Below, piece by piece: positions 10,425 through 51,922 of a stretch of DNA of 64,000 bases. Under the pieces are notes generated by a model. The model was not told the DNA's origin. It did no database searches and saw nothing but the letters and a program-made list of their open reading frames with translations. Source of the stretch: an uncultured bacterium (GTDB lineage Bacteria > Hydrothermota > Tepidihabitantia > SM23-42 > CAYGYG01); contig CAYGYG010000001.1 of NCBI GenBank assembly GCA_964354155.1, positions 139,121 through 203,120 on the forward strand. Reading direction: 5' to 3'. The translations under genes were made by a program, and so were the position numbers. The number at the start of each line of letters is the position of its first letter. Position 1 is the stretch's first letter.

Positions 10425-10425
10425 C

Positions 10426-14089: not shown

Positions 14090-14647
14090 ATGAAAAAGCT
14101 AATGCTAATTTCCATTATTTTCGCGCTTTGTTTCGTTGCCTGCCGCAAGGATGACGATGATGGGCCGCCGCCACCACCGCCGCCGGCTCAGAAGAACGCA
14201 ATCGACCTGCTCCCCAAGGATAACGAAATCAGCGGCTGGACCAAGAGCGAAGCGGTCAGGATTGCCGGCACTCCCGATGAATTGACCGCGATCATCGACG
14301 GCGAGGCCGTTCCCTACATCAACAACAACTTCAAAGATGCGGTTTTCCAGAAGTACCAGGGAGTCATTGGTTCAAACACTATAACTCTGGAGGTTCGCAT
14401 CTTCGACATGCGCGACACGGCCAATACCCGGAAGGTCTACCAAGATGTCGCCGCGGGTGGCGAACAACCCTGGAATAACCATCCCGGCGTTGAAGGCCGT
14501 ATCAATGACAGTTTCCTGTTCGACTACATGGTCGAATTCTGGGAAGCCAAGTTCTACACGCGCATTTTCATTCAAGAGAGGAGTGCGGCGGCGCTGGACA
14601 TTGCCAAGACTTTCGGCCTCAACATCTCGGCGGCAATCAAAGAGTAG
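14090..14647 (+). CDS. lipoprotein with poly-Pro linker, unknown function
   Basis: MKKLMLISIIFALCFVAC lipobox followed by RKDDDDGPPPPPPPAQ. The supplied ORF starts at 13934, but the signal peptide begins at 14090. Confidence 0.6.
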   Translation: MKKLMLISIIFALCFVACRKDDDDGPPPPPPPAQKNAIDLLPKDNEISGWTKSEAVRIAGTPDELTAIIDGEAVPYINNNFKDAVFQKYQGVIGSNTITLEVRIFDMRDTANTRKVYQDVAAGGEQPWNNHPGVEGRINDSFLFDYMVEFWEAKFYTRIFIQERSAAALDIAKTFGLNISAAIKE

Positions 14648-14653
14648 TCTCGT

Positions 14654-15577
14654 ATGAAGAATATCTCGCGCCGCGATTTTTTGAGACAGGCGATGGCGGC
14701 GGCCTTATCCGCCGCCCTTCTGCACAACGGCCGTGGTCTTTTTGCCCAGGAACCGGAGACGATGGACCTGGTGGTCGCAAAAGGAGACAAGGTTAAGGCG
14801 CTGAAAAAGGCCCTTGAGGCCTACGGCGGTATCGGCCGGTTCGTCAAGCCCCAAGATCGGGTCCTAATCAAACCCAACATCTCTTTTGCGAGCCCGCCGG
14901 AGTGGGGCGCAACCACGAGTCCGGAGCTGATCGTCGAGGTCGCTCGGGCTTGCCTTGAGGCCGGGGCCAAAAAAGTTATTATCGCTGACTACCCGCTGAG
15001 TGCTGCCGAGGTCTGTTATGCAAAGTGCGGACTCAAAAAGGCGATGGAGCAACTCCCACAAGTCGATGTTGTACTGTTGACCCAGGAGCGATTCTTTGTC
15101 GAGACCGAGGTGCCGCAAGGACTGGTCCTCAAGTCGACCAGGCTGGCCCGGGAGCTCTCCAAGAGCGATGTCCTGATCAGCATGCCCACGGCCAAGTCGC
15201 ATTCGGCTACCGGCGTGAGTCTGGGCTTGAAGGGCCTGATGGGTCTGATCTGGGACCGCGGTTACTTCCATCAGGATGTTGACCTAAATCAGGCGGTCGC
15301 GGACCTGGCCACAATTGTCAAACCAAACCTGGTGATCATGGATGCCTCGCGGCCACTGACATCGGGCGGCCCCGGTGGTCCGGGTGTGGTCAAGGAGCTG
15401 AACAAGGTGATTGTCGGTGTTGATCCGGTGGCGGTCGATTCCTATACGGTCGGTCTCGTCAAGTGGTATAACAAAGTGTTCGCCGGCAAGAACGTTAAGC
15501 ACATCGCCTTAGCCGCCAAGATGGGCTTGGGGGAGATTGATGTTACGAAACTGAAGATAAAGGAGCTCCTGGCCTAG
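14654..15577 (+). CDS. Tat-exported DUF362 domain protein
   Basis: Twin-arginine motif SRRDFLRQAMAAALSAALL. The body shows DUF362-type alpha/beta blocks (VLIKPNISFASPPEWGATTSPELIVEVARACLEAGAKKVIIAD). Confidence 0.7.
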   Translation: MKNISRRDFLRQAMAAALSAALLHNGRGLFAQEPETMDLVVAKGDKVKALKKALEAYGGIGRFVKPQDRVLIKPNISFASPPEWGATTSPELIVEVARACLEAGAKKVIIADYPLSAAEVCYAKCGLKKAMEQLPQVDVVLLTQERFFVETEVPQGLVLKSTRLARELSKSDVLISMPTAKSHSATGVSLGLKGLMGLIWDRGYFHQDVDLNQAVADLATIVKPNLVIMDASRPLTSGGPGGPGVVKELNKVIVGVDPVAVDSYTVGLVKWYNKVFAGKNVKHIALAAKMGLGEIDVTKLKIKELLA

Positions 15578-15612
15578 TATCCGGCCTTGCCGGGGCCTGC
15601 GCCGGAACCAGC

Positions 15613-17124
15613 ATGCCAAAGCGAACCCCATCTACGATGGCGAAGTGGCTCAAGGCAACGCGTATTGCCTCGCAGATCCTTTTCCTGGTTCTATTCGTCT
15701 ACCTTTTCAGGGCCTCGGCCAGCGTCGCCCGCCCGCTGTTCACCAATCCTTTCTTTCAGTCCGACCCATTGCTCTTTATCGCGACCTCGCTAGCCAACCG
15801 CAGTCTGCTTCCGTTCTTGCTGCCCTTGCTTTTCATGCTCGCGACGGCTGTCCTGGGCCGCGTTTTCTGCGGTTTTGTCTGCCCGCTCGGTTCGCTGATT
15901 GACGGTTTTGACGCTGTGGTCGGCCGGATAAAATACCGCAAGCTGGACTTCAGATTCCTCAAATACTATCTGCTTTTCTTTCTCCTTGTGCTGGCGCTGT
16001 TGGGCAGTACCTTGGTTTTCTTCTTTGACCCGATAGTCATCACCGGGCGCAGTTTTGTTGGTGTCATTCGGCCGGTTGTGTCCTTGCTGACCGGCAGTCC
16101 AGTCATGCACAACGGCATCATTTTCTTTGCTATCATGGCCGGAATTTTGATGTTTGGTTTCATTCAAAAGCGTTTCTGGTGTCGCAATCTATGCCCGCTG
16201 GGCGCACTGCTCGGGCTGGTCGGTCGTTTTTCCCTGCTGCGATACCGACTCGATGATGACTGCAAAGAATGCAGTCTCTGTGCCCGGCTCTGCCCGACCC
16301 AGGCGATTGACTCGGACGAGCGGGTGATAACCAGCAGCGAGTGTATCCGGTGCATGAATTGCCTGGGCGATTGTCCCGAAAAGAAGATCCACATTGGTTT
16401 CGGCGTAGGTCCGCTTCCCGGTCCGGGTCCGGATCTGAGCCGGCGTGGTTTCTTGGCCTCAGTCGGTTTAGGTATCATTGCCGCGCCCTTGCTCAAGACC
16501 GATTTTTTGACCAAGATCAACCTAGGCAAAGTGATTCGTCCGCCGGGAGCGATTCCCGAAAGCCTCTTTCTTAATGCCTGTGTACGCTGCGGCGAATGTG
16601 TGAAAGTTTGTCCGACCCGAGGCTTGCAGCCGGTCATGTTTCAAGGTGGCCTTGCTGGCCTGTTTGCGCCACGGTTGGAGGCACGGATCGGAGGGTGTGA
16701 GCGGAACTGCAACGGTTGCGGGCAGGTCTGCCCGACCGGGGCGATCCGCAAGCTGTCGCTTGACGAGAAGAGCTACGTGAAGATGGGCACGGCCGTGATT
16801 CATAAAGAGATGTGCCTGGCCTGGGAGCAAGACAAGGTGTGCCTGATCTGTGATGAGGCCTGTCCGTATAATGCGATCACTTCGCGGCTGGCCGAGGCAG
16901 CGGGCAGCCGTTTGTTAAGACCTTTCATAGACGAAGAGTTATGCACCGGCTGCGGCATCTGCGAGTCGCGGTGCCCGATCGCCGGTCCTTCGGCGATTGA
17001 AATCTTGCCGATCGGTGAAGAGCGGTTGAGTAAGGGTTCATACATGACGGCGCGAAAGAGGGAGCTTCGAGAACAGCTGGAGCGGGGCACCAATGAAGAT
17101 ATTCCTTCAGGGTTCATTGAATGA
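15613..17124 (+). CDS. membrane-bound polyferredoxin, NapH/MauN-like (two CxxCP membrane-domain motifs plus several 4Fe-4S CxxCxxCxxxCP clusters)
   Basis: CGFVCPLGSLID and CRNLCPLGALLG lie within the TM region. Downstream clusters: CKECSLCARLCP, CIRCMNCLGDCP, CVRCGECVKVCP, CNGCGQVCP, CLICDEACP, CTGCGICESRCP. Confidence 0.8.
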   Translation: MPKRTPSTMAKWLKATRIASQILFLVLFVYLFRASASVARPLFTNPFFQSDPLLFIATSLANRSLLPFLLPLLFMLATAVLGRVFCGFVCPLGSLIDGFDAVVGRIKYRKLDFRFLKYYLLFFLLVLALLGSTLVFFFDPIVITGRSFVGVIRPVVSLLTGSPVMHNGIIFFAIMAGILMFGFIQKRFWCRNLCPLGALLGLVGRFSLLRYRLDDDCKECSLCARLCPTQAIDSDERVITSSECIRCMNCLGDCPEKKIHIGFGVGPLPGPGPDLSRRGFLASVGLGIIAAPLLKTDFLTKINLGKVIRPPGAIPESLFLNACVRCGECVKVCPTRGLQPVMFQGGLAGLFAPRLEARIGGCERNCNGCGQVCPTGAIRKLSLDEKSYVKMGTAVIHKEMCLAWEQDKVCLICDEACPYNAITSRLAEAAGSRLLRPFIDEELCTGCGICESRCPIAGPSAIEILPIGEERLSKGSYMTARKRELREQLERGTNEDIPSGFIE

Positions 17125-17180
17125 GAAGAACCTCTAAGGCGGCCAATGGCTGAAGCGTACATCAAGACCAGGCAGGCCGG

Positions 17181-20100
17181 GTGACCCTCTTTCTTGTCTT
17201 GACGCTTCTTGCCGAGAGCGGCAAGGCCCTGGAAGGCCGGCCGATGGCTCTGTCAGCCGAGGGATACATCTTTATGACAACCCCGTCCGGCGTCTATCGC
17301 TTCGACAAGAACGCGCTGGAATGGTCGGTCCTTACCGTCAAAAACGGCCTGCCTCAAAACCTGGTTACGACCCTGGGGGTCGATGAAGGCTTGTTGTGGG
17401 TGGGCACCGATTCTGGTCTGGCCGTGGCCGACTTGAAACTGCTCAATTTCCGCGTCGTGGACACCTCGACCATTGGCGGCATCGGCTTTGATGCCGACTA
17501 TGTCTATGCCGGCGGTCCGGCCGGGATTCTGCGTTACGACAAGTATAAAGACCAACTGGAACTATTCGAGACCGGCGCCGCGGTTCGTGATCTAGTTCTG
17601 GTTGAAGACCGGATCTTCGCCGCGACTGATTCGGGTCTCGTCGTCTTCAACACGCGATACGAGAAGACGGAGGCCACTCCCTACGAAATAAGCGAGCCGC
17701 TCAAACATATCGTTACCACGAACTTCAGTCTGTTTTTTCTTGGTAACCAGAACTGCTATCAGTATCACAAGACGACCCGGGGCTGGCGCCGATTTGATGG
17801 GTTCAAGGCGAACGACTATGCGGTGCGCGGCGATTCGGTTTGGGTGGCGACGGACGACGAGGTGATGATATATGATGATGTCCTTGGTGGCTGGTCGCGG
17901 TATCGACAGGAAGAGTGGCTACCGGCACCGAGAATCACGGCACTCTCGGTAACCGCCGGCTATCTAGTTTTCGGCAGTGAACAAGGGATTATCGTGGTCG
18001 ACAACAAGAACCGAACTTGGAAGAAGTATAACCTGGCCAACGGTCTGGTTGAAGAAAGCGTGCTGAGAATCGTTGAAGAAGGGGGCGAGATTTACCTGCT
18101 TTCTCCGGGTTGGCTGCAAAGGTTTGACCGCAAAGGAGACTGGAAGCGTCTGAAGATCGAAGGTCTCCAGGTTGCCAAAGAAGGGCTTTTCACGGTCGAT
18201 GAGGCGGGCGGCCATATCAACCTGTCGAACGATGTCAAGGCGACCCTGCAGGGTCGCATCTCCGGTCAGTATGAGATGCAGGACACGATGGTTCTGAAGA
18301 GCGAGACCATCGACAGCCGGTTCATGCTTGGTCGAACCGGCGGACGGTTGCTGGCGGCTTACTACGACGATACGGAAAAACAGAGAAAACTCTATGGCGC
18401 GGTTTACCAGGATCCCAAAGGAATCGTTGCGCGGGCCAGCGCCGGCAAGCTCCGGTCCGAATTCTACAAATCGGGCCTGATCCCGCCCGGTTCCTATCTG
18501 GGCGGCAGCGGACGTCTGGAGACAAAGGTTGCGGCGCTGACCATGGCCGGGGGCGCAAAGCGTTCGGCCTTCACCGCCGACTATTTTACTGGAAACAGCA
18601 CCAACCGATTGCTGTCCATCGAGGACATCGCCTACCTCAAGAACGTATTTTTCGCGGTCGACACGATCGACCCACAGATCGATTTCGAGAGCGAATCGTT
18701 GTTCGTCGACAACCGGGTTGCTCTCGACAACGACGAGAACACGCGGCTTGGCCAGCGGATTGCCGGATTGGTCGGCGATTTCGACCCACGACACCGCGGC
18801 ATTGACTACGCGGTCGACTATGCCCGGGGAATGATTCGGTTTCTAACCCCACTTGCCGATTCGGCGGTTGTAGTCATCAAGTTCAGTGGCGGACAGGAAG
18901 CAGTGCTGCAGGGGCGGGGCCAGGACAGTCTGGAATTGAAGAATCATTACCAGCTCGGGGCCATCGAGATACTGCCCCGCAGTCTTTCAATCCGTATCTT
19001 CGACACAACCAATGTCGAATACCCCCTGGACCGATTTGGACTCGACAATAACCGTGACGGTGCGGTCGACGACGAGTACGTCAACTACTTCAACGGCATA
19101 CTACGTTTCCCCGCGCGGCGGCCTTTCCCGGATACCGTGTACCAGTCAACCCCGGCCAGCTGTTACCGGATGATGATTTCCTACCGGTCAAAGATGTCGA
19201 CTTACCAGCTGTCACAGGCACCGGTGGTTACTAACAGCGAGGAGGTGATTCTGGATGGGGTGAGTGTACGCCGCGGCATCGACTACATCATCGACTACAG
19301 TACCGGCAATGTCGTTTTTCTGGAGAAAGGTCGCGTGTTGACTAAGAGTGAGATCGAAGTTCGCTACGAGTATGAGTATCCGGAAGGTGGGACCAGTTCG
19401 GATACCGCGGTTCTGGGCGGACAGCTGGCCGTGGCGCCCGGCGGCGGATTTGAGTTTGTTCCCGGCTTCTATCGTTCGGGCGAACAGCAGGTGGCCAATG
19501 TTGTTTCGGAGTGGGAGCTAAAGCGGCCTGCGCTTGGCCTGAGGCTTGTGCCCGAGATCGGTATCAATGCGGACGATTCCCGGGCAAAGGGGGGCCGAGT
19601 TTCCGCGTTCGGCAGCTTGAGGCGCTTGCGGCTCAATTCCATCGTCGAGACGTACGAACCTGCCTTCAAGGCATTTGGGCGACGCACGAGTCGGTACGGC
19701 GAACTGACCTCGCGGTATTACCTGTACAGCAAGTACGAATTCTCGGATTTCGTTGCCGTCGATGGTTCTTATGATCGGCGCCAGGCTGAAGATACGGTCG
19801 CCGGCTCTCAGTTCGACCGCGAGACCGGCGTCGGTGGAGTGTACTTCAATCTCCCCAGCCTGCCGGTTCTGACCCTGGGCGGCGGGCAGCGCACGTACTC
19901 CGGTGACCTGCCCCAACCCCAGGAGAAACGCTACTCTGGGCACGCCAGTATTGACTATAGCGTACCCCCCGGCGTTGCACGGCGGGCACGCTTGAGCAAT
20001 CTGAAACTGGGCGGGTCGTTCTCGGCCGAGATGATCACCGAACCTGGCGAGATGGATCTTTGGGAGGAGAACCGGATTCTCAGTGCCTCGTCCACGCTTC

Positions 20101-21095
20101 CGCTGTCGAATGATATCGGGGTTTACTACCGCGGCGTGGATGAGCGGGAGGTCGGCACAAGCCTGCCCCTGGAGAAGGGGGACAACTTTCGGTTGACCTC
20201 ACGCCACGATTTCATTCCTGGTATCTACGTTGCCAATAGCTATGAGCTGGACGATGGATTGGCGCTGGCCCAGGAGGACCGACTGCTCAGCCTGGATCAT
20301 TCGCTCCTCTCCATGGCCAAGATAGGACCCGGCGCCTGGTTTCCCGACCTCAGCTTCATCAATTTCGAGGTAAGCTACGGTCGCAGCATGACCGCATCGG
20401 TCAGCGGGCCGGGTCTTAGCCGGGTCTTTTTCAGTCTTATGATCCCGGAGCAAGGCGATATCCTGTACCAAGGTCTTTCCAACAGCTATACGTTTACGGC
20501 CGATCTTCGGCCGGCATCCAGCCTTATCATCAGTCCGGCATATTCTCTGGCCCGGGGCGAGACCGGCTACTGGGACGGCTTGACCAGATTTGTTGAGCAC
20601 AACCTTAGTCCTAAGCTGGAGACATACCTCGGACCCAACACGACCTTAACCGGCCAGTACTTTCTCAAGGATGAAGAGCGCGCCGGCATATCCTCGAGGG
20701 TATCGAATAACCCGGTGGCCGAGTGGCAGAATCGCTGGTCACGAACTATCAGAACCAAAACCAGGCTGTCGGTTCGGCGTGAAGTGTACAACGAGGGCAA
20801 CATCGAACAGACGGATGACGACGTGTCGCCGTCAGTACAATTCGGCTACTACGACGACCGGTTCTTCAAGGAATTCGAATTTCTGACCACGCTCGGGTTG
20901 AGTTACGGGCGGACCATGAATGGAGTCACGTCGGAAGAGATGCGCGTTGTGCCGGTGTTCGAATTGAACATGCGGCCGACGACTTTCTTTGTGGTGAATA
21001 CTTCCTTCCAACCCACCTACACCTATGACCTGGGTGATCCTGACTTGAGTGAGTTTGATCCTTACCTTAAGCTGAAGGGAACACTCCAGTTCTGA
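17181..21095 (+). CDS. very large (about 1300 aa) protein with N-terminal two-component-regulator-propeller-like (Reg_prop) beta-propeller repeats and a C-terminal beta-rich region ending in Phe (outer-membrane-like)
   Basis: Repeats of type GLPQNLVTTLGVDEGLLWVGTDSGLAVADL / IFAATDSGLVVFN / VWVATDDEVMIYD. The C-terminus KLKGTLQF. The start codon is uncertain (GTG 17181 or ATG 17244). Confidence 0.5.
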   Translation: MTLFLVLTLLAESGKALEGRPMALSAEGYIFMTTPSGVYRFDKNALEWSVLTVKNGLPQNLVTTLGVDEGLLWVGTDSGLAVADLKLLNFRVVDTSTIGGIGFDADYVYAGGPAGILRYDKYKDQLELFETGAAVRDLVLVEDRIFAATDSGLVVFNTRYEKTEATPYEISEPLKHIVTTNFSLFFLGNQNCYQYHKTTRGWRRFDGFKANDYAVRGDSVWVATDDEVMIYDDVLGGWSRYRQEEWLPAPRITALSVTAGYLVFGSEQGIIVVDNKNRTWKKYNLANGLVEESVLRIVEEGGEIYLLSPGWLQRFDRKGDWKRLKIEGLQVAKEGLFTVDEAGGHINLSNDVKATLQGRISGQYEMQDTMVLKSETIDSRFMLGRTGGRLLAAYYDDTEKQRKLYGAVYQDPKGIVARASAGKLRSEFYKSGLIPPGSYLGGSGRLETKVAALTMAGGAKRSAFTADYFTGNSTNRLLSIEDIAYLKNVFFAVDTIDPQIDFESESLFVDNRVALDNDENTRLGQRIAGLVGDFDPRHRGIDYAVDYARGMIRFLTPLADSAVVVIKFSGGQEAVLQGRGQDSLELKNHYQLGAIEILPRSLSIRIFDTTNVEYPLDRFGLDNNRDGAVDDEYVNYFNGILRFPARRPFPDTVYQSTPASCYRMMISYRSKMSTYQLSQAPVVTNSEEVILDGVSVRRGIDYIIDYSTGNVVFLEKGRVLTKSEIEVRYEYEYPEGGTSSDTAVLGGQLAVAPGGGFEFVPGFYRSGEQQVANVVSEWELKRPALGLRLVPEIGINADDSRAKGGRVSAFGSLRRLRLNSIVETYEPAFKAFGRRTSRYGELTSRYYLYSKYEFSDFVAVDGSYDRRQAEDTVAGSQFDRETGVGGVYFNLPSLPVLTLGGGQRTYSGDLPQPQEKRYSGHASIDYSVPPGVARRARLSNLKLGGSFSAEMITEPGEMDLWEENRILSASSTLPLSNDIGVYYRGVDEREVGTSLPLEKGDNFRLTSRHDFIPGIYVANSYELDDGLALAQEDRLLSLDHSLLSMAKIGPGAWFPDLSFINFEVSYGRSMTASVSGPGLSRVFFSLMIPEQGDILYQGLSNSYTFTADLRPASSLIISPAYSLARGETGYWDGLTRFVEHNLSPKLETYLGPNTTLTGQYFLKDEERAGISSRVSNNPVAEWQNRWSRTIRTKTRLSVRREVYNEGNIEQTDDDVSPSVQFGYYDDRFFKEFEFLTTLGLSYGRTMNGVTSEEMRVVPVFELNMRPTTFFVVNTSFQPTYTYDLGDPDLSEFDPYLKLKGTLQF

Positions 21096-24302: not shown

Positions 24303-24600
24303 GTTGGGTCTCCTGCCGAATTATACCGCGTTCAGGCGAAAAATCAAGGGCGGGTCGGGACCCATCCGAGAAAGGGAGATCTAAGTCCTAAATCCGAAGC
24401 TCTAAACACTAAACAAATCCCAAATCACAAACTCCAATGTTCGAAATGAAACGGGGTTTAGAATTTCGGTATTGGGATTTCCCGTCAGCCCTCGTAGGGT
24501 CGGGTTTTAAACCTGACCAGATCTCGCCAGGTTTGGACAACAAAAGGGGCGATTGTCGAATCGCCCCTGCCGGGAAACGGAGAACGCTCGGTATCGAGCG

Positions 24601-25989
24601 TCAGTTTGCCACGACCATGGTTTTGGAAACCGAGCGACGTCCCGCCTTGATTGTATAGACGTACACACCAGCCGCGGTCTTGCGGCCCACGCGGTCGCGA
24701 CCATTCCACATCACCTCGAAGATACCCGGGTTGTGCATCTTGTCCGCCAGCGTCCTGACCGCGCGACCCGCCTTATCGGTGATCTTGACGGTGACTCTTG
24801 TTGGTTCTTTCACGGCATACCGTATGATGGTCGTCCCGCTGAACGGGTTGGGCTGATTCTGGTACAGCACAATACCGTCAACGCGTTCCGCACGCTCTTC
24901 TTCAACTCCGGATGGATTCTGAATCCTGATCAGGTTGATGTCCATGGTGCCGAGATTATAAGGGGCCTGCGCCGCGGTCCTGATGTGTGCCGCGTCTTTG
25001 GCGGGCAAACCGCGCCGGGCACGTTCCGCATCGATTATTTGCTCGCCCTGGTAGTCGATGGCAACCGGGTCTCGTGACATAAGAAGACTATCCGGCGTAT
25101 TCTTGGGTGCGAAAGTCAACCATGACTGGGGACTGCCGCCCGGTCCGCCGTTATAGATACCGAAGAGACCGTCGACGATGAAGATCTTTTCCTGTTTATT
25201 CAGGACATCCCTTATCTGCTGGTTGAGCGACGGGATTTCCGGGCTGTTATTGCCGTCGCCGGCGCCGCACGGGACCGGGTTGCACGAGCCGTAGTGGTTT
25301 TTCAGGCAGAAAGTCATGGCTGGTGCCCCGTGGTCTTTGAGGCAGGCGACGTTGATCATGTAGTTCGAGAGCGCCGACATGATCCGGCTCGGCTGGACGC
25401 TGATCGTGCCGCTGTCCCGCTGGATGGTCAAGGGTCGGGTTGCGTCATACCCGATACCGGTCTGGTTTGTGCCGAATACCCGGTGCTGGGTGGGCGTGCC
25501 GCCGGTGTAGATTGTGTAGCCGGCTCCGGTCAGTTCACCATTGGTCCGGTCCCATATGATAGCGTTGTTCCGGATGAAGTTCTGGCCGCCGATGTTCATC
25601 TGAGCCAGCCCATTGATCACGGTCTCGACCAGGAGCCGATGCGACGAGAGCGCACTATTTATGCAGTTGACTTTGATGCAGATCACGCTGGCGGTAGTAA
25701 TACCCGGAAAGAGGGAGCGCCAGGCGTCACCGAGGTTGGATATACCGGTCAGGCGGCGCATCGATGTATCCATCATTATCTGCACGATGGACTGGTTGAT
25801 CGTCGTTCCGGTAGTGGCCGCAACATCATTGCACCAGATGACATCGCTGGCCGGCAGAAGCTTACCCGGCTTCTGCTTACTATCGGCAAAAAGCCCGGGC
25901 ACAACTGCCGCACCCGCGGCGCCGGCCGCAAGCTTCTTCAAGAAATCACGACGAGAAATCGGCTTGCTCATAAACCTCCTTATGTTCAA
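24601..25989 (-). CDS. DUF362 domain protein with Tat signal and C-terminal T9SS sorting domain
   Basis: Twin-arginine motif MSKPISRRDFLKKLAAGAAGAAVVPGLFA (alternative start at 25971). DUF362-like core. C-terminal IVLYQNQPNPFSGTTIIRYAV...GVYVYTIKAGRRSVSKTMVVAN is a type-A T9SS tail. Confidence 0.7.
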   Translation of the reverse strand: MNIRRFMSKPISRRDFLKKLAAGAAGAAVVPGLFADSKQKPGKLLPASDVIWCNDVAATTGTTINQSIVQIMMDTSMRRLTGISNLGDAWRSLFPGITTASVICIKVNCINSALSSHRLLVETVINGLAQMNIGGQNFIRNNAIIWDRTNGELTGAGYTIYTGGTPTQHRVFGTNQTGIGYDATRPLTIQRDSGTISVQPSRIMSALSNYMINVACLKDHGAPAMTFCLKNHYGSCNPVPCGAGDGNNSPEIPSLNQQIRDVLNKQEKIFIVDGLFGIYNGGPGGSPQSWLTFAPKNTPDSLLMSRDPVAIDYQGEQIIDAERARRGLPAKDAAHIRTAAQAPYNLGTMDINLIRIQNPSGVEEERAERVDGIVLYQNQPNPFSGTTIIRYAVKEPTRVTVKITDKAGRAVRTLADKMHNPGIFEVMWNGRDRVGRKTAAGVYVYTIKAGRRSVSKTMVVAN

Positions 25990-26016: not shown

Positions 26017-29000
26017 CTACTTCAAATAGATGATCTTCGCGACTGACGAGCCGCTCGGTTTCTCTATTTTGACAAAATAGACGCCATTGGGTAAATCCAA
26101 AGGTTGCCACCGGACGCGTCCTTTGCCCTGGGTTTCCGCGCTGAATAGATTATCGACCAGCCGGCCCGAGGCGTCAAAGATGTCGATGGTCAGCCTTTCG
26201 CGAGTCGGCAGGCTGTAGGTTATGTTGACCGCCTTATAGAACGGACTCGGTGTGATGTTGACGGTGGGCACGTTAGTTATCCGGACGTAAGTCTCCTCTT
26301 CGATGCCGATATTCCGATCCCACCAGGATTGGGCACTATCCGAATTGATCAGCGCCAGGGTCGTATCATTGCCGCCGACCACGGCGTAGGCAACGCGGAC
26401 CTTGCCGCCGACCGGCAGGTTAAACGGCCCGGCCGACGCGCAGATCGACCAATTGAACGCGCGGTCGCTGAAGCGCATTCTGATCAACCCGGAAAGGAAG
26501 CTGTCTTTCGCCGCTTCGGTCATCATCGTGGCGGGCAGCACGTAACGCGCGTGGTCAATCGCCGACAGATTCCGTGCGGCTCGGGGTTGGAGCACCCGAA
26601 TGCCGCAGACCGGGTACATCGTGGTTGACCGCCTCATGTAGATGAACCTTCGTACGCTGTCCGACCTCACGATATTGCTGGTCACGTTATTGTAGACGTC
26701 GAAGTCAAACATCATGCCGGAGGAGAGGTTATTGATCGGATTCGTGCCGCGGTTGTAGTAGTCGAAGCAGACGATGACCCAGTCGTCATAACCCGGCTGG
26801 GACAGCGACAGACTCCACTGCTTGACTTCCAGGCCTTTGGGCGAAGCATGGTTGGCATCGTTGTACACCGCTTCATACTCTTCTTGCGCGGCCCGGGGCG
26901 GCAACACAGGCCGGAGCGAATCAACCACGCGGAAATCCTGGTTGATGGTGGTGTAGGGACGGCCGTAGAACCGGTCGACGACGTAATTGGCGTCAGTTCC
27001 GGCGAGCATGCTGGCGTACTGCAGGTTGCCATAAGATGATAGCTTCGAATACTTGAAACCAGAACCCTCACCATAAGGATAGGTTACGCCGAAACTGCCA
27101 TTGGTCGTTACCGTGAAGGCCGGGAGACAGGTGTCATGGTCAGCCCAGGCGAGTCGGGCGTCAGGCGGTACTCCGACGGTGAGTCTCAGGAAAGGTTCCC
27201 AGCCGCCCTCAGAAGCGGTCGCATTGACGAGGAACTCAATCCCGGTTCCCTGTGGGGTGGACGGAGACACGGTGAACCGATAGGTGTCACCGCGGCTCGT
27301 ATCGCCGGCCGCGACATTGCCGTAAACGGAAGTCGAGTCGACGAAGCTGATGAAGCCGGAGCTGTTGCGCAGGCGGCCCTGGAGGTTCGTCGCGCCCGCG
27401 TTACCAGCATTCTTAAGCGTCATGTAGAAGTTGACAGTTTCGCCCGGATCAAGACGCCCGTTGTTGTTGCCGCCGGAATCGTCGATGCGGTGTGACTGGT
27501 AGACGATACAGGGTCTCGGTGATCCCGAGCTCACGGTGCAGGTTCCCTCGTAGGGAATCAGGTCCTTGTACGTAACCGTGATGCTCAAGGCTCCGGTTGT
27601 AGTCGGGCTGACAAAAAGATCTATCCAGCCCTGACTGTTGGTCCGTCCAACCGCGTATACCTCAGTACCCTTCAGAGCACAGACTAGGGCATTGACGACC
27701 GGCGTGCCGGAAAGAGTTGTTGTCACCCGGAGCATCTGAGGCGATGCGGGTATCGTGGCAACGTGGGTGACCGTTGGACGCCGTGGCGCGACACTGTACA
27801 TGGGCAAATTGGGATCGCCAAACAGCGTGTTTTCGTAGACGCACCATCGGGTGGCCGCCTGGGACATTGCCATGTTCCGGCAATTGTCCTTTGCCATATC
27901 GTGGGCGATGCCGACTTCAAAGGCCGATTTAAGCCAGAAGCATTTGTAGAATTCAAGATCGAGGATCTCCGAAGGTCCCAGCCCCGGTGGATAGCCAAGT
28001 CCGTAGCGGGAGTTGAGCATGTTCGCGACGCAGCCGCCGGTCGGACAGTTGACGAGACTCTCCGCGATGCAATCCTTGGCATCGAAACTGCCGACGTCAC
28101 AGTTGATGGCATTCATGATGTCCAATCGTATCCCGTTGGTCAGCGTGGGTATATGGCTCATGCTGAGCACGCTCAGCGACGTGTAGCTGCCGTGCGCCGC
28201 GATGTGGCAGAACTGATACCCGCGGTTTATCGAGTCCCGGGTCGCAGTCGAGGCCGGGTCTTTCAGTTTGGCTTTTTTCCAGGTCGGCGGAAAGTAACTA
28301 GCGATTATGTTGTTCGGAAATTCGCCGTGATAAGGCGAGAACAGCATCTGAGAGGGGAGGAGCAGTGACTTCACGTACGCCGTATCCGGATATTTCTCGA
28401 AGGTCGTATCTTTCCTGATGAATGTCGGCAGGTTTGTCGCGTTGTCGATCGGGGCGCGCCCGATGTAGACGTCGTGGAGTAGATCCACGGTGTCACCCAT
28501 CTCACCGAAAAGGCTGTTCCGGTTGCCGTCCCACGACCATTGCAGGTCGGCGTAGTACATGTCGGTAGGGATACTCCCGGTTATCGTGCTTTCTTCGATC
28601 ACCAGCCTTGTCTTGCGGTCCGGCACAATCATGTCATCACCACCGAGCAGAACGTACTTTAGTCCCTTGGTGCGCCAGTAGTCGGCGATGAAGTTTCTGA
28701 TCTTCTCCTGGTTGTCGCGGCCAGCATAGCGCGCATAGATCGAATCAGTCCCCATAACAACGGTGTTGATGCCTTTTTTGACCTTCCAGTTCTTGAAGGC
28801 GTCCCAGCTCGGAACGAGGGTCCGGCTCGTAATGATGACGTAATCGATCTCCCCGGCATCCAATTCCTTGACCTGAGGCGCCCAGGATGCTACGGCCTCA
28901 GGATTGGCTACCAATCCCTTGACCTCGCGGCCGAACAGCTCCTGCTGACTGGTCGTGAGGGCGACCGGTTCATGCCGGCCGGTCTCGTAGTGAACGTTTA

Positions 29001-29499
29001 ACGTAATACGATTGTAGAGAAGGAGATGTTTCTCGGATGGCAAATACTGAACCGGATAGAGCAAGACTCCGGCAATCCGGTAGCCGGAAAGGCTTCCCGA
29101 GGGGATCAGTTTGACGATTTCGGCCGGATAAGGGTTTGATGAACCATAGACCTTCTGATCCGGTTCGACAAAAGGATAGACATTCTTCGACGAGAACGGT
29201 CTTATCGTCTGAACTGGATGGGGTAGATACTCACCAGGCAGAACCTGACTCTGACTCGAAACGACCTCCACTTTAGTCACTTCAGCGGTGGGGGGAATCA
29301 AGAAGCACAGACTGACCACGGGCAATAGCGGCTTGCCCTTTTCCCAGGTCGCGCCGTTTCTTTCCAATGTAACAAAGTCGTAGCCGTCGACCTTGGTAAT
29401 TGTCAGGTCGCTTGCGGAAAACGAAATACTCTTGGTTACTATGCCGCCCAAGAGCAGGGCGGGCAGGATTACCGCCAGAACGAGCGCACGGTGCAGCAT
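26017..29499 (-). CDS. gingipain-like cysteine peptidase (peptidase C25 family) with T9SS C-terminal domain
   Basis: 1160 aa. Signal peptide, then a C25-like catalytic region (CHIAAHGS... catalytic His; NAINCDVGSFD catalytic Cys), then a T9SS tail ...GVYFVKIEKPSGSSVAKIIYLK. Confidence 0.7.
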   Translation of the reverse strand: MLHRALVLAVILPALLLGGIVTKSISFSASDLTITKVDGYDFVTLERNGATWEKGKPLLPVVSLCFLIPPTAEVTKVEVVSSQSQVLPGEYLPHPVQTIRPFSSKNVYPFVEPDQKVYGSSNPYPAEIVKLIPSGSLSGYRIAGVLLYPVQYLPSEKHLLLYNRITLNVHYETGRHEPVALTTSQQELFGREVKGLVANPEAVASWAPQVKELDAGEIDYVIITSRTLVPSWDAFKNWKVKKGINTVVMGTDSIYARYAGRDNQEKIRNFIADYWRTKGLKYVLLGGDDMIVPDRKTRLVIEESTITGSIPTDMYYADLQWSWDGNRNSLFGEMGDTVDLLHDVYIGRAPIDNATNLPTFIRKDTTFEKYPDTAYVKSLLLPSQMLFSPYHGEFPNNIIASYFPPTWKKAKLKDPASTATRDSINRGYQFCHIAAHGSYTSLSVLSMSHIPTLTNGIRLDIMNAINCDVGSFDAKDCIAESLVNCPTGGCVANMLNSRYGLGYPPGLGPSEILDLEFYKCFWLKSAFEVGIAHDMAKDNCRNMAMSQAATRWCVYENTLFGDPNLPMYSVAPRRPTVTHVATIPASPQMLRVTTTLSGTPVVNALVCALKGTEVYAVGRTNSQGWIDLFVSPTTTGALSITVTYKDLIPYEGTCTVSSGSPRPCIVYQSHRIDDSGGNNNGRLDPGETVNFYMTLKNAGNAGATNLQGRLRNSSGFISFVDSTSVYGNVAAGDTSRGDTYRFTVSPSTPQGTGIEFLVNATASEGGWEPFLRLTVGVPPDARLAWADHDTCLPAFTVTTNGSFGVTYPYGEGSGFKYSKLSSYGNLQYASMLAGTDANYVVDRFYGRPYTTINQDFRVVDSLRPVLPPRAAQEEYEAVYNDANHASPKGLEVKQWSLSLSQPGYDDWVIVCFDYYNRGTNPINNLSSGMMFDFDVYNNVTSNIVRSDSVRRFIYMRRSTTMYPVCGIRVLQPRAARNLSAIDHARYVLPATMMTEAAKDSFLSGLIRMRFSDRAFNWSICASAGPFNLPVGGKVRVAYAVVGGNDTTLALINSDSAQSWWDRNIGIEEETYVRITNVPTVNITPSPFYKAVNITYSLPTRERLTIDIFDASGRLVDNLFSAETQGKGRVRWQPLDLPNGVYFVKIEKPSGSSVAKIIYLK

Positions 29500-30971: not shown

Positions 30972-31931
30972 ATGAAGAAAATCAGGAAAGTCCATATCGC
31001 CAGTCTACCGACGCCAATTGAGGTGATGCGCGACTTCCCGCATCCGGCCACGATTTTCGTGAAGCGGGATGACCTTACCGGGCTGCTGACCAGCGGCAAC
31101 AAGGTGCGCAAGCTCGAATACTCGCTGGCCGACGCCCTAAGCTACAAAGCCGACACGGTCATTACGTGCGGGGGCATCCAATCGAATCACTGCCGGGCGA
31201 CGGTCGCCTGTTGCCGCATACTGGGATTGAACCCGGTTATCGTTCTGCGGGGCGAACCGGTGCAACCCTATGACGGCAACCTCCTGCTCAATCAGCTGCT
31301 GGGGTGTGAAATCAGGTACATCACGCGGCGGGAGTACGATCATGTTGACGATTTGATGGAATCAATGGCCGCGGAGCTCATGCGGCAGGGCAAGCATCCT
31401 TACATAATTCCCGAAGGTGCTTCGAACGAAGTCGGTCTTCTCGGCTACATCGAGTGCATGGCTGAGATGAAAGAGTTCATCAAGCGGGAGCGGATCGAGG
31501 CGGTGTATGTCGCCGTAGGATCAGGCGGCACTTATGCGGGCCTGCTGTTGGGCAGAGTCATCCACAAGGTTGATGTTGATGTGTTCGGTGTCATCATCTG
31601 TGATACCGTCGAATTTTTCACCGAGAAGGTGTGCCGCATCGCTCAAGTCGCAGTTGACCGGTACGGCCTGGGCGCGGGAATTGATAAAGACGATGTCACG
31701 CTGGTTGACGGCTACATCGGCAAGGGTTACGGGATTCCTTATCGCGCCGAGATTGAGACGATCAAGAAGGTCGCGAAATTCGGCATCATTCTTGACGTGG
31801 TTTACACGGGCAAGGCTTTCCACGGTATGCTGAATCACGCCAAGGCCTACAAGAAGGTTCTATTCATTCATACCGGGGGCATATTCAGCCTGTTCCCGTA
31901 CCGGGAGGAATTCTATGGCCATCGGTCCTAA
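30972..31931 (+). CDS. PLP-dependent D-cysteine desulfhydrase / ACC deaminase family protein
   Basis: LPTPIEVMRDF...VKRDDLTGLLTSGNKVRKLEYSLADAL...TCGGIQSNHCRATVAAC...AVGSGGTYAGL are fold-type II PLP blocks typical of the DcyD/ACCD family. Confidence 0.75.
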   Translation: MKKIRKVHIASLPTPIEVMRDFPHPATIFVKRDDLTGLLTSGNKVRKLEYSLADALSYKADTVITCGGIQSNHCRATVACCRILGLNPVIVLRGEPVQPYDGNLLLNQLLGCEIRYITRREYDHVDDLMESMAAELMRQGKHPYIIPEGASNEVGLLGYIECMAEMKEFIKRERIEAVYVAVGSGGTYAGLLLGRVIHKVDVDVFGVIICDTVEFFTEKVCRIAQVAVDRYGLGAGIDKDDVTLVDGYIGKGYGIPYRAEIETIKKVAKFGIILDVVYTGKAFHGMLNHAKAYKKVLFIHTGGIFSLFPYREEFYGHRS

Positions 31932-31947
31932 CACAAGTCGTTTCGGC

Positions 31948-34560
31948 ATGCTGATGGCATCGATCGCGGCGCTCTCACTGGCCGCGCCGATCACGTTCGA
32001 CCCGGCGCAGACCCAGCCCTCGCGCTGGGTCGATCCCTACGGCCGGCAGCCGCAGTCTCATGCGCAGTGGGCAGCCGGGGTCGGGAGGGACGCCCTTGCG
32101 TACCTGGTCATTGGTGAGGCGGTCGGGACCGGTAAAGGGGCGAATCAGAATGTCGTCGATATCGTCGTCAATAGCCAGGTGTATCCTGACGTGGTATCGG
32201 AACTGGCCCAGTTCCGCACCGATCTTGTTGCCGCCGGATACGAGGTCCGCATTGATACGATACGCGGCATGTCGGCGCCGGCGCTGCGAACCCATCTGGC
32301 CGGCCTGGCCGGTTTGGTCGGCGCATTGTTTGTCGGCGAGTGTCCGGTCGAATGGTATGAAATCAATGGCTGGGGTGCGTGGGAAGAGTTTCCGATCGAT
32401 CTTTACTTTACGGACCTGAACGGGACCTGGGCCGATACCGACCTTGATGGTATTCTTGACTCGCACACCGGCAATGTCGCGCCCGAGATCTGGTTGGGCC
32501 GCCTCTATGCCCGCACCCTGACCTGGGATAGTGAGACGCGGCTCTACAAGAGGTACTTTCAGAAGAATCATCTGTATCGTACACACCAACTGACGTTACC
32601 GCAACGGGCCCTATCTTATGTTGACGATGACTGGTACGGTTGGGGTTCATGCTCGGTCAACCTGGTGTACCCAATAACCACCACGATTGAAGACATGGCG
32701 CTGACGACCGCCCAGGGTTATCGTCAGCAGCTTCAACAGGGTTACGAGTGGATTCACCTCTGCTCGCATTCTTCGCCCTGGGGTCACACCTTCAAGTACC
32801 CCGACGTCACAATTCAGTATAAAGGAACGGTCTTCAACTACGAACTCTTCGTGCTTGAGCCCAAGGCTCATTTCTACAATCTCTTTGCCTGTTCCGGAAC
32901 CAGATTCGTCGAAGAGAATTATTCAGCAGGCTGGTACGTATTCCACGATTCGTGCGGTCTCCTTGCCTTAGGCAGTGCAAAAACCGGGGGTATGCTGACC
33001 TTTCAGGATTTCTACACCCCCTTGAGTCAGGGACTGTCAATCGGCAATGCCTTCAAGGCTTGGTTTGTCAGAAACGGCGAGTCGAGCCGTGCCTGGTTCT
33101 ACGGACTGAATCTCTTGGGCGACCCAACTTTGAAGCCAAAGGAACAGGGCGGCGACTATGTTGCTCCACCGCCCCAGCAGTTCCACGGGGCTTTCGCCGA
33201 AGTCGTGGCGCCTGATTCTGAGAGCGACGGGATGCCGGCCATAGCAAGTGAGCCGTCCGGCCGCATCTGGGCGGTGTGGGAAACCGGCCGGTCGATTACG
33301 AACGGCCGCTGTGACATCTTCTCAGCCTACCGGACAACGGCTTGGTCAAGCGGTATGCCGGTTGGTTCCTTCATCTATTGGGACTACAATCCAACGGTCG
33401 GGCTGGACAGTCTTGACCGGCCGCTCGCGGTCTGGGCCGGCTGGGAGAATATTGGCGGCAACTACCAATATGACCTGTTCTGGAGTTACTACACCGGGTC
33501 AGCGTGGTCGAACCGGGCGCTGGTCCATCCGCTCGACCCGACATCGGATATGAAGCCATCACTGGCACGTGACCGGAACAAGCGCCCCTGGATTGCCTGG
33601 CAGACCAAACGCGACGTCAATTCCAATATCTATGTCACATACTACTCGGGGTCGGGCTGGAGCACACCGCGCGCCGTGAGCAACAATCCGGCCGAAGAGG
33701 TCGGGCCAAAGATCATCTGCGACAATACGGGTCGGCTCTGGGTGTCTTACAGCCGGCGTAGCGCAGACCGATCCCAGATATGGGGAAGCTATTACGACGG
33801 CGTGAACTGGATTGAGACCGGTCCGGTTTCGCAGAATCAGGAGCGGGCATACAATCCATCGGCTGCCGTCACCGGCACCGGAAAGGTCTGGGTGACCTGG
33901 CAGTCTTATGATGGCGGCAATGGTGAGATCTTCGGCAGCTACTACACCGGCACCGGCTGGTCAGCCCCGATCAACATCTCCAACCATGTGCTCAACGATA
34001 TGAGTCCGAGTATGGCGGCGGATGGTAATGGCCATGCCTGGGTTGTCTGGCACACTAACCGCGACGGCAATTGGAACATCTACTATGCTACCTGTCAAGA
34101 CCAGAGCTGGACTGCGCCTCAGGTGCTCGATGCTAATCCGGGGGTCGACATGAACCCTGCGATCGCTTCGGCACCGTCGAACAAAATGTGGGTTATCTGG
34201 CAGAACTATTCGGCAAACAACTGGGAAATCTATGCTCTGCAAAAGGATGCGGTAGAAATAGAAGAGAAAGAAGCAAGAGATAAGATGCTGGAAGCAAGAT
34301 TCACGATTTGGCCGAATCCTGCAAGGAGCGACGTTAGATGTCAGATTTCCGGTGTCAGTATGAAGAATACAAAAATCAAAGTCTATAATATCGCCGGAAA
34401 GATGGTTAAAGAAATGCCATTATCAGTTGGGGGTGGCAGTGCAGGAGCCCACTCATATCAATTCGTTCTGAATCTCTCAGATTTGGCTGCAGGAACCTAT
34501 TTTATTGGGTTGGAGAGCGGTGCGGGAAATGAAGTCCAAAAACTATCCATAGTCAAGTAA
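31948..34560 (+). CDS. second C25/gingipain-like peptidase-domain protein with W-rich repeat region and T9SS C-terminal domain
   Basis: Signal peptide MLMASIAALSLAAP. HLCSHSSPWGH and NLFACSGTRF look like a His/Cys dyad. At least 8 repeats of type Y(Y)xGxGWSxP. The T9SS tail is ...AAGTYFIGLESGAGNEVQKLSIVK. The ORF track starts it at 31915, overlapping the upstream gene. Confidence 0.6.
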   Translation: MLMASIAALSLAAPITFDPAQTQPSRWVDPYGRQPQSHAQWAAGVGRDALAYLVIGEAVGTGKGANQNVVDIVVNSQVYPDVVSELAQFRTDLVAAGYEVRIDTIRGMSAPALRTHLAGLAGLVGALFVGECPVEWYEINGWGAWEEFPIDLYFTDLNGTWADTDLDGILDSHTGNVAPEIWLGRLYARTLTWDSETRLYKRYFQKNHLYRTHQLTLPQRALSYVDDDWYGWGSCSVNLVYPITTTIEDMALTTAQGYRQQLQQGYEWIHLCSHSSPWGHTFKYPDVTIQYKGTVFNYELFVLEPKAHFYNLFACSGTRFVEENYSAGWYVFHDSCGLLALGSAKTGGMLTFQDFYTPLSQGLSIGNAFKAWFVRNGESSRAWFYGLNLLGDPTLKPKEQGGDYVAPPPQQFHGAFAEVVAPDSESDGMPAIASEPSGRIWAVWETGRSITNGRCDIFSAYRTTAWSSGMPVGSFIYWDYNPTVGLDSLDRPLAVWAGWENIGGNYQYDLFWSYYTGSAWSNRALVHPLDPTSDMKPSLARDRNKRPWIAWQTKRDVNSNIYVTYYSGSGWSTPRAVSNNPAEEVGPKIICDNTGRLWVSYSRRSADRSQIWGSYYDGVNWIETGPVSQNQERAYNPSAAVTGTGKVWVTWQSYDGGNGEIFGSYYTGTGWSAPINISNHVLNDMSPSMAADGNGHAWVVWHTNRDGNWNIYYATCQDQSWTAPQVLDANPGVDMNPAIASAPSNKMWVIWQNYSANNWEIYALQKDAVEIEEKEARDKMLEARFTIWPNPARSDVRCQISGVSMKNTKIKVYNIAGKMVKEMPLSVGGGSAGAHSYQFVLNLSDLAAGTYFIGLESGAGNEVQKLSIVK

Positions 34561-35158: not shown

Positions 35159-35187
35159 TTGACTTTTTTTAAGAATATAGATATAAT
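35159..35187 (+). promoter_or_regulatory. sigma70-like promoter (TTGACT-17-TATAAT) for paralog 1
   Basis: ttgact at 35159-35164 and tataat at 35182-35187. The RBS gaggaggtaagATG at 35235 follows. Confidence 0.5.
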
Positions 35188-35234
35188 GCTGAACATCGGG
35201 TAAAATTTTCATTTTTTATCTTAGAGGAGGTAAG

Positions 35235-36974: not shown

Positions 36975-36983
36975 GGAGGGTAA

Positions 36984-51921: not shown

Positions 51922-51922
51922 A

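Follow-up and report, generated by a model that had tools for sequence, protein, structure and literature searches.

We analyzed a 64,000-nt stretch of the genome of an uncultured bacterium (GTDB lineage Bacteria; Hydrothermota; Tepidihabitantia; SM23-42; CAYGYG01), namely positions 139,121 to 203,120 of the forward strand of contig CAYGYG010000001.1 (GenBank assembly GCA_964354155.1), hereafter the window. On its minus strand, the window encodes a protein that combines a twin-arginine translocation (Tat) signal peptide, a DUF362 core and a C-terminal domain resembling the type-A sorting tails of type IX secretion systems (T9SS). This protein, hereafter long DUF362, belongs to a family whose genes usually head a conserved cluster encoding, in order, the tailed long DUF362, a DUF6599 lipoprotein, a short Tat-DUF362 protein, a polyferredoxin that fuses NapH-like and NapG-like parts, and an outer-membrane-like protein (OMP) of ~1260–1300 amino acids (aa) without a Pfam match. 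The window holds genes 2–5 of this cluster as a block at 14090–21095 on the plus strand, and its long DUF362 gene lies apart from them (Table 1). Based on the observed sequence features, their conservation and synteny, together with a predicted fold, we infer Tat and T9SS use, surface location, a cofactor and its chemistry, and consider it moderately probable that long DUF362 is an extracytoplasmic, enzyme-like protein that is exported by Tat, then sorted by a T9SS-type pathway, and is a member of a conserved envelope system.

The mechanically called open reading frame (ORF, 24601–25989, minus strand) opens at a TTG codon, and the first-pass annotation of the window, made from its letters alone, had read the protein from the ATG at 25971. 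This ATG, rather than TTG 25989, is almost certainly the true start because a perfect AGGAGG lies three bases upstream of it. The protein translated from it begins with MSKPISRRDFLKK and is 100% identical to a database protein from a metagenome-assembled genome (P0001, NCBI).

The N-terminus consists of an SRRDFLK motif, a weakly hydrophobic h-region (LAAGAAGAAVVPGLFA) and an A-x-A-type cleavage site, that is, a twin-arginine signal in place of the N-terminal Sec-type signal peptide of T9SS type-A cargo, and it passes the NCBIfam Tat model TIGR01409 (26.4 against a cutoff of 16.7). The Tat signal, already proposed in the first-pass annotation, is upheld by its conservation across the family. 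At least 373 relatives came from a search of 5.8 billion proteins; each of the top 120 has E < 1e-100 and a length of about 435–455 aa, the named ones being annotated as 'DUF362 domain-containing protein [candidate division WOR-3 bacterium]'. The motif S/T-R-R-x-F-L-K is present in 119 of these 120 closest homologs, and the lone exception begins within the motif. An exhaustive hidden Markov model (HMM) search of 1.84 billion representatives yielded 406 clusters at E <= 1e-30, of which we inspected the best 149; the twin-arginine (RR) motif was found in 122 of these 149 50%-identity representatives, most of the exceptions being visibly truncated. We also scanned one genome per GTDB species, obtaining 78 loci on which HMMs of each cluster component were run, and the long protein has the RR motif in 77 of them. 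As an internal control, we examined eight other tail-bearing ORFs of the window. None carries RR; the leaders of six are of the Sec type, short and strongly hydrophobic (12-residue hydropathy 2.1–3.1), and the called starts of the other two are uncertain. The corresponding hydropathy values for the two DUF362 proteins of the window are 1.80 (long) and 1.67 (short).

It is, in our judgment, very improbable that this N-terminus is an ordinary Sec signal that happens to resemble a Tat signal, which would make long DUF362 a conventional Sec-dependent T9SS cargo. Such a reading could appeal to the Pfam TAT_signal model (PF10518), under whose cutoff of 22.7 the protein falls marginally at 22.1, and to the lack of tatA and tatC in the 64-kb window. 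It is countered, however, by the near-invariant motif and the TIGR01409 match, by an h-region whose hydrophobicity is far below that of Sec leaders in the neighbouring cargo, and by the conserved RR of two further cluster products, the short DUF362 and the polyferredoxin. Moreover, tatA/tatC repeatedly adjoin the cluster, lying directly beside it in loci L003/L034, L012, L016, L019, L024, L026, L027, L042 and L044; in L010, a tail-less Tat-DUF362 paralog is followed co-directionally by tatA and tatC.

At the other end of the protein, the T9SS type-A tail that the first-pass annotation had recognized scores above the cutoff of the curated model TIGR04183 (25.0 against 23). It is located at the extreme C-terminus, starts with PNPF and ends with G.Y...K.v.v, as is typical of type-A tails, and most of the top 120 homologs end in a G.YF.RL...KV.V.N tail. 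When the full AlphaFold model was compared with the PDB using Foldseek, matches were limited to this domain, the top one being the C-terminal domain (CTD) of PorU (6za2), followed by FlgD, PorZ (5m11) and a cargo CTD bound in the SprA translocon (8gl8_D). The predicted domain is thus an Ig-like beta-sandwich resembling the solved T9SS CTDs (PorU 6za2, PorZ 5m11, mirolase 8qb1 and the cargo in 8gl8/8glk). The tail is a family trait, present in 25 of 25 named WOR-3 loci and, among the named lineages, almost confined to Fibrobacteres-Chlorobi-Bacteroidetes (FCB)-type phyla, being absent in Poribacteria, Spirochaetota and Acidobacteriota. The phylogenetic profile of proteins with both Tat signal and tail agrees with a T9SS assignment, apart from one tailed long DUF362 in a genome labelled Hyphomicrobiales (L083), whose contig is probably mis-binned. 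Among the homologs, two proteins of 1384 aa (P0121) and 1071 aa (P0122) contain four and three tandem DUF362 cores, respectively, with a single Tat signal and a single tail at the end; these may be multi-domain forms or gene-fusion artefacts of tandem arrays.

A different interpretation of the same domain is that it is a structural or binding Ig-like module of the FlgD_ig type, and that Tat export leaves the protein in the periplasm, where it might be docked to the cluster OMP or to peptidoglycan. On the window's copy, FlgD_ig indeed gives 35.8 bits (cutoff 27) and outscores the Pfam tail model Por_Secre_tail (PF18962), which reaches 17.8 and stays below its cutoff of 27; PF18962 matches are precomputed for many other family members. 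Furthermore, none of the core T9SS machinery (SprA/Sov, PorV, PorU, PorK-N) was found among the window ORFs scanned, and a Tat-dependent T9SS cargo is without a known example. Nevertheless, we regard this interpretation as unlikely: TIGR04183 exceeds its curated cutoff, the motifs sit at the extreme C-terminus, the closest structures are T9SS CTDs, the distribution of the tail among named lineages follows FCB-type phyla, and the tail HMM also matches other T9SS-type cargo in the window, which has at least eight other tail ORFs.

If sorted by T9SS, long DUF362 would depart from the known cargo in one respect. It shares with type-A CTD cargo such as RgpB and Kgp of Porphyromonas gingivalis (TIGR04183/PF18962) a C-terminal beta-sandwich of ~80–90 residues with the same fold, an FCB-type lineage and a genome region rich in other CTD proteins, but those cargo have Sec signal peptides, whereas the long DUF362 family has a conserved twin-arginine, and its secretion is a prediction from sequence. 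According to reviews of T9SS, Sec takes the cargo through the inner membrane, T9SS transports proteins in the folded state, and CTD proteins occur in the FCB superphylum only. The rules of T9GPred, derived from 102 experimentally confirmed cargoes, demand 'no Tat signal'. The combination of signals pointed out in the first-pass annotation thus falls outside T9SS cargo as now defined. A Tat-to-T9SS route would be mechanistically feasible because T9SS is known to carry folded proteins. Comparable two-step routes reportedly exist that couple Tat to the type II secretion system (T2SS), namely for the phospholipase PlcH of Pseudomonas aeruginosa and the extracellular, cofactor-containing DMSO reductase DmsAB of Shewanella. 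In both, as proposed here, Tat exports a protein that has already folded in the cytoplasm, and a separate outer membrane system for folded substrates takes over; T2SS, however, uses no linear sorting tag, whereas long DUF362 would use T9SS and a C-terminal tag. Our literature search for Tat-dependent T9SS cargo, T9SS in WOR-3, this cluster, DUF6599, PF04015, and periplasmic nickel-pincer nucleotide (NPN) or extracytoplasmic LarA-like proteins found no prior description.

Between the two signals lies the DUF362 core. The Pfam model PF04015 matches it with 34 bits (cutoff 24), covering residues 201–307 only (profile positions 96–196 of 200); the N-terminal half of the core is divergent, yet its K100, N102 and D141 align with those of short DUF362 proteins. 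No PDB sequence matched the core in a profile search, which implies that its close sequence relatives are without a solved structure. In the AlphaFold model, built on a 62-sequence alignment (mean predicted local distance difference test score, pLDDT, of 86, with most of the core above 90), the core is predicted to adopt a LarA-type fold. In Pfam, DUF362 shares a clan with the N-terminal domain of LarA (PMC11770544). In an alignment of 123 diverse long and short DUF362 proteins, K100, N102, D141, K212, H214, K224, G228, D267, D301 and D306 are near-universal, and the polar residues among them (K100, N102, D141, K212, H214, K224, D267, D301 and D306) are placed by the model in loops following the central beta-strands. 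A further His is kept in 94% of the 123 proteins; the window protein has Gly238 in its place. Neither the long nor the short DUF362 contains Cys clusters for Fe-S binding, CxxC-type motifs or CxxCH heme motifs, and we accordingly rejected the possibility that long DUF362 is itself an Fe-S or heme redox protein. The first-pass annotation had proposed to look for a cofactor pocket and conserved Cys and His ligands. The conserved residues are Lys, Asn, Asp and His on a predicted LarA-like fold, there is no Cys motif for an Fe-S cluster, and one His is lost in the window's copy.

The LarA superfamily comprises NPN-dependent 2-hydroxyacid racemases and epimerases (5HUQ, 7S91, 9EIA, 9Q3J, 4NAR), which are cytoplasmic enzymes, whereas the DUF362 proteins studied here carry putative export signals and have no significant profile similarity to them. 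In L. plantarum LarA, as read from the PDB alignment, the active-site signature is ES-H174-x9-K184-x15-H200, and the DUF362 family shows H214-x9-K224-x13-H; the order in which N102 and D141 come after beta-strands matches that of D72 and H108 in LarA. This suggests an active-site correspondence, at the level of pattern only. Alignment of the family with LarA by hhalign, using both narrow and broad profiles, was not significant (probability <1%), and we abandoned the attempt to prove equivalence of the active sites at the sequence level, for which a co-linear, non-significant alignment and the motif spacing are what is left. Long DUF362 has no Lar_N or LarA_C Pfam matches, no lar genes, including larB, larC and larE for NPN biosynthesis, were found in the 64-kb window, and the last His of the LarA pattern is the one replaced in the window's copy. 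A redox or cofactor-binding role of long DUF362 is nonetheless plausible given its apparent Tat export, the putative LarA-fold ancestry and the Fe-S partner described below. Separately, in L008, a true LarA (6495–7754, minus strand; Lar_N and LarA_C, 227 bits to the malate racemase Mar2) is encoded 2.2 kb upstream of the cluster, which may be a coincidence, and indicates that at least this relative has an NPN-dependent enzyme.

The broader finding concerns the gene context. Tight, co-directional clusters headed by long DUF362 are found, for example, in L003, L004/5, L008, L009 and L012, and all four partners lie co-directionally downstream of the long gene in 16 of the 18 named WOR-3 loci with at least 6 kb of flanking sequence. 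Among 14 loci from other named FCB-type phyla (Zixibacteria, TA06, Cloacimonadota, Ignavibacteriota, Eisenbacteria, KSB1, Calditrichota, Bacteroidales, Fibrobacteraceae and LCP-89, all assigned here to the FCB group), DUF6599, short DUF362 and OMP occur together in seven and the polyferredoxin in two. The cluster varies in the number of tailed long DUF362 genes, which ranges from one to three, tandem copies being common among the loci, and in the polyferredoxin, which occurs in WOR-3 and some other lineages. The OMP is missing from two Spirochaete loci, which encode DUF6599, the short DUF362, the polyferredoxin and a long protein without a tail. In one Zixibacteria locus (L048, 8906–10279), the DUF6599-like protein itself carries a T9SS-type tail.

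The window's DUF6599 protein falls just under the cutoff of PF20244 (25.8 bits against 27); its orthologs of 179–196 aa all have lipoboxes. Its N-terminus (MKKLMLISIIFALCFVAC) is followed by a poly-Pro linker, and its true start is probably the ATG at 14090; the mechanical ORF start at 13934 abuts a tRNA-Met(CAT) gene (13855–13930, minus strand) at the 5' edge of the cluster. The short DUF362, which has RR in 46 of 46 full-length orthologs, had been described in the first-pass annotation as a second Tat-DUF362 paralog. A DUF362 domain and a Tat-type N-terminus are indeed present, but the subfamily is a different one: the BLASTP match to long DUF362 over the core is not significant (22% identity, E=1.4). 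We therefore rejected recent paralogy of the two window genes, which represent distinct subfamilies that share one cluster.

The link to a membrane polyferredoxin proved stronger than the first-pass annotation had claimed because this gene is co-directional with both long and short DUF362 in most WOR-3 relatives. The protein matches the NapH model (E 4e-27) and the NapG model (E 7e-30) without reaching their equivalog cutoffs, as would be expected if the two are fused. Its NapH-like half contains four membrane segments, two CX3CP motifs and two Fe-S motifs, and is followed by an internal RR and a weakly hydrophobic fifth segment (LSRRGFLASVGLGIIAAPLL, aa ~275–297), then by a NapG-like domain with four Fe-S motifs, which brings the total to two CX3CP and six Fe-S motifs. 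The internal RR is conserved in 7 of 7 and 24 of 26 orthologs. The layout of gene 4 resembles those of the NapGH quinol dehydrogenase and of the dual Sec/Tat NapH-NapG fusion polyferredoxin, with four NapH-like segments, two cytoplasmic clusters, an internal RR and a four-cluster NapG domain; this fusion architecture has been shown experimentally to be inserted jointly by Sec and Tat, so that its NapG half ends up on the periplasmic side (Tooke et al. 2017, PMC5449189). By sequence, gene 4 has this dual Sec/Tat architecture, and the cluster would therefore encode three Tat-dependent products, namely long DUF362, short DUF362 and the polyferredoxin. By analogy, the polyferredoxin would expose four [4Fe-4S] clusters in the periplasm and could link the quinone pool to a periplasmic partner; the partner of NapGH is nitrate reductase, whereas gene 4 is genetically linked to DUF362 proteins instead.

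An association of DUF362 with Fe-S proteins is known from DUF362-2x[4Fe-4S] ferredoxin fusions. It recurs here in trans, through the cluster polyferredoxin, and in its classic cytoplasmic form in L010, where a second type of cluster (3044–10257, all genes co-directional) encodes a 368-aa cytoplasmic DUF362-2x[4Fe-4S] fusion, a 1209-aa T9SS-tailed protein, a 354-aa tail-less Tat-DUF362, tatA and tatC; the same WOR-3-like genome also has the canonical cluster. DUF362-CBM9-dockerin fusions hint at extracellular DUF362 (PMC5742341). Both the ferredoxin and the CBM9-dockerin proteins are uncharacterised too, and no description of any of them mentions a Tat signal together with a T9SS tail, or this cluster.

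The fifth product, a 1304-aa protein in the window, has orthologs with a signal-like N-terminus, a terminal Phe (6 of 6) and few or no Cys. Its N-terminal third is a Reg_prop-type beta-propeller (PDB 4a2l, E 9e-27), and residues 660–731 give a local match to the SprA/Sov model TIGR04189 (E 2e-12) that is also found in 8 of 14 OMP orthologs from several phyla. An RGIDY.VDY..G motif similar to this SprA/Sov module occurs near aa 541–560 as well, the ~70-residue module is weakly similar to phage tail-tube and distal-tail proteins, and the rest of the protein has no match apart from the propeller. These features raise the possibility that the tail is read by the cluster's own OMP rather than by a general T9SS, the cluster being a self-contained device for exporting and anchoring long DUF362. 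The co-occurrence of tail and OMP fits such a device: among clusters with enough flank, both are present in 30, the tail alone in three, the OMP alone in none and neither in three (Fisher p = 0.003, with kinship ignored). PorZ_N propeller matches were also found in 3 of 14 OMP orthologs, although these probably reflect generic Reg_prop similarity. We nevertheless find this scenario quite unlikely. The TIGR04189 match amounts to 45 bits against a cutoff of 200 and spans 72 residues only, there is no full-length SprA equivalog match, the OMP family profile does not match the solved SprA in the PDB, and the OMP is about half the size of SprA. Having weighed the local NCBIfam match against the lack of a PDB SprA match, we dropped the notion that the OMP is a SprA homolog; the two appear to share only the ~70-residue module. 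The structure model of the OMP, built from six sequences, has a pLDDT of 33 and is unusable, and the window's long DUF362 no longer adjoins the OMP gene.

Table 1. Features of the 64,000-nt window discussed in the text (positions are those of the window)
Feature	Position	Strand	Remarks
Long Tat-DUF362-tail gene	24601..25971	-	456 aa plus stop (from the translation); stop codon 24601-24603
Twin-arginine signal peptide, aa 1-29 (MSKPISRRDFLKKLAAGAAGAAVVPGLFA)	25885..25971	-	cleavage before D30 likely (inferred)
DUF362 core, aa 40-355	24907..25854	-	predicted LarA-like alpha/beta fold
His/Cys-loss segment, aa 224-240 (KNHYGSCNPVPCGAGDG)	25252..25302	-	from alignment column, Gly238
C-terminal beta-sandwich, aa 366-456	24604..24876	-	T9SS type-A sorting-domain-like
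Shine-Dalgarno AGGAGG	25975..25980	-	3 nt ahead of ATG 25971; read directly from the sequence
Intrinsic-terminator-like hairpin and T-run	24545..24568	-	~33 nt past the stop; pattern scan, consensus match only
Gingipain-like C25 peptidase	26017..29499	-	prodomain and T9SS tail; Pfam and PDB matches
DUF6599 lipoprotein (gene 2)	14090..14647	+	lipobox LCFVAC; start revised from 13934 to ATG 14090
Short Tat-DUF362 (gene 3)	14654..15577	+	predicted periplasmic; PF04015 160 bits, full length
NapH-NapG fusion polyferredoxin (gene 4)	15613..17124	+	internal twin-arginine before fifth membrane segment
OM-like protein, 1304 aa (gene 5)	17181..21095	+	N-terminal beta-propeller, ~70-aa SprA/Sov-like segment, beta-rich C-terminal region ending in Phe
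BNR/Asp-box repeat paralogs with T9SS tail	37342-38997, 39543-40841, 40958-42637, 62174-63775
FG-GAP repeat protein with T9SS tail	59834-62017

In the window, the long gene lies 3.5 kb past the cluster on the opposite strand, separated from it by rsmF, a small ORF, fabD and sppA, and the same layout is seen in an 89% identical relative (L006). No second long-family gene or remnant that could represent the canonical gene 1 was found in the window, the 5' edge of the cluster being occupied by the tRNA-Met gene. The protein itself belongs to a sub-clade (the window's copy and P0002–P0006, 69–100% identity) that has SPVPCGAGDGNNSPEIP in place of ...PGsL-H-xxx-C-xP; both the His and the following Cys are lost, and a conserved Cys235 is gained, giving the window's copy Cys230 and Cys235 in this segment. 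Elsewhere, the His-less sub-clade stands alone in L011 and is the second of a tandem pair in L007/L013, where the first copy keeps the His. By these sequence criteria, the window's copy is a detached, inverted and diverged paralog with an altered putative ligand position. The His was lost independently in the long DUF362 of Eisenbacteria (L077 and L080), where it is replaced by the Cys-rich segments GSCCPASLCGN and GSCLPSSLCGD; because these parallel the Cys replacement in the window's sub-clade (GSCNPVPCGAGDG), a recurrent His-to-Cys ligand switch in the family is suggested.

Upstream of long DUF362 on the coding strand, across a gap of 45 bp, is a gene for a gingipain-like C25 peptidase. The short gap and the terminator-like hairpin, found only after the DUF362 gene, indicate that long DUF362 is probably the second gene of a two-gene transcript. 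In the PDB, the peptidase matches gingipain R as well as the prodomains of Kgp and Rgp, and PorU is absent at the threshold used; given these gingipain catalytic and prodomain matches, and with a weak NF033707 match that reflects generic C25 similarity, we rejected its identification as the sortase PorU. The first-pass annotation had noted this neighbour and placed long DUF362 upstream of it. The adjacency is real, but the C25 gene is the upstream one on the coding strand, and the arrangement is lineage-specific, being found only in the window and in L006 and not in L007/L013 or L011, which limits its relevance to the family.

These peculiarities could mean that the window's copy is a non-catalytic, degenerate paralog, that is, a pseudo-enzyme or binding protein that has kept its sorting signals, lost the ancestral function and now serves the gingipain-like peptidase as a partner or as an accessory for substrate binding. 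The loss of a His that 94% of the family retain, and of the following Cys, the detachment of the sub-clade from the cluster in the window, L006 and L011, and the probable co-transcription with C25 are all compatible with such a role. On balance, we consider it distinctly improbable since the other approximately nine conserved polar residues are intact, the sub-clade is well conserved (69–89% identity) and includes the replacement Cys235, the Cys-rich segment that arose independently in Eisenbacteria points to a switch of ligand and not to decay, and the C25 adjacency is absent in L007/L013 and L011.

The remainder of the window is rich in T9SS-type cargo. The regions 31915–42637 (plus strand) and 59834–63775 are dense with T9SS-tail ORFs, all without RR and most with Sec-type leaders, which include an 881-aa protein, a 579-aa protein, BNR/Asp-box repeat paralogs and an FG-GAP repeat protein. 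Elsewhere, the window encodes selB (50002–52011) and selA (51923–53323) in the region 50002–53323 on the minus strand, next to a tRNA-Ala gene (49766–49839), and the organism therefore probably makes selenoproteins. Tandem DUF4139/DUF4140 proteins of the MuiA family (TIGR02231) are encoded at 1264–2916 and 3220–4782 on the plus strand, and a DUF6754 protein at 8617–9792 (a strong match, 404 bits) is followed by three ORFs without a family match (9798–11894).

Taken together, the reading of long DUF362 as a Tat-exported, T9SS-sorted envelope enzyme envisages the following course of events. The protein would be translated from ATG 25971 and fold in the cytoplasm, where it would probably gain its cofactor. 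It would then cross the inner membrane in the folded state by Tat, directed by the 29-residue twin-arginine signal peptide, after which the 90-residue type-A sorting domain would take the folded protein over the outer membrane for release or surface attachment. With its partners, the system could work in two stages, a surface step carried out by the tailed protein and a periplasmic step carried out by the short DUF362, the latter electronically coupled to the membrane through the polyferredoxin. By analogy with the hydride-transfer chemistry of LarA, the substrate is perhaps hydroxy-acid-like, and the reactions could be hydride transfers or redox reactions coupled to the polyferredoxin.

Several of the observations weigh against this course of events. 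The route is without precedent, all 102 confirmed cargoes behind T9GPred being treated as Sec substrates. On the window's copy, PF10518 and PF18962 both remain under their Pfam cutoffs, and neither tatA/tatC nor T9SS core machinery is encoded in the window. The correspondence with LarA goes no further than pattern, the hhalign comparison being non-significant, and with Gly238 in place of the widely conserved His the window's copy may not be catalytically equivalent to the rest of the family. On the side of the OMP, Cys and heme motifs through which electrons might pass the outer membrane are absent, the structure model is unusable, and the association with the tail is uncorrected for phylogeny, its tail-less cases coming from two lineages.

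A more ambitious proposal is that the cluster as a whole constitutes a new envelope-spanning system of FCB-type bacteria. In such a system, LarA-fold enzymes with a cofactor assembled in the cytoplasm, perhaps of the pincer type or another metal, would be exported by Tat in the folded state, with a short periplasmic form and a tailed surface form, wired to the quinone pool via the dual Sec/Tat polyferredoxin and equipped with a dedicated OMP carrying an SprA module. We put this forward tentatively and regard it as unlikely in this full form. If true, it would represent the first Tat-to-T9SS route and the first extracytoplasmic branch of LarA/DUF362, and its redox or hydroxy-acid chemistry, extracellular or periplasmic, would be new.

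The cluster occurs in mostly uncultured phyla (WOR-3, Zixibacteria, KSB1, Eisenbacteria, Calditrichota and Cloacimonadota); because it is also found in Bacteroidales and Fibrobacteraceae, genetic tests may be possible in a culturable relative. For DUF362, a large family without a solved structure or known function, these findings would provide a handle in the form of a LarA-like fold, candidate active-site residues, obligatory Tat export and fixed partners that include an Fe-S conduit. Current T9SS predictors discard proteins with Tat signals. If both signals of long DUF362 are used, Tat would join Sec as a source of T9SS cargo, which would have to be defined more broadly, and cofactor-loaded, pre-folded enzymes could be placed on the cell surface of FCB-type bacteria.

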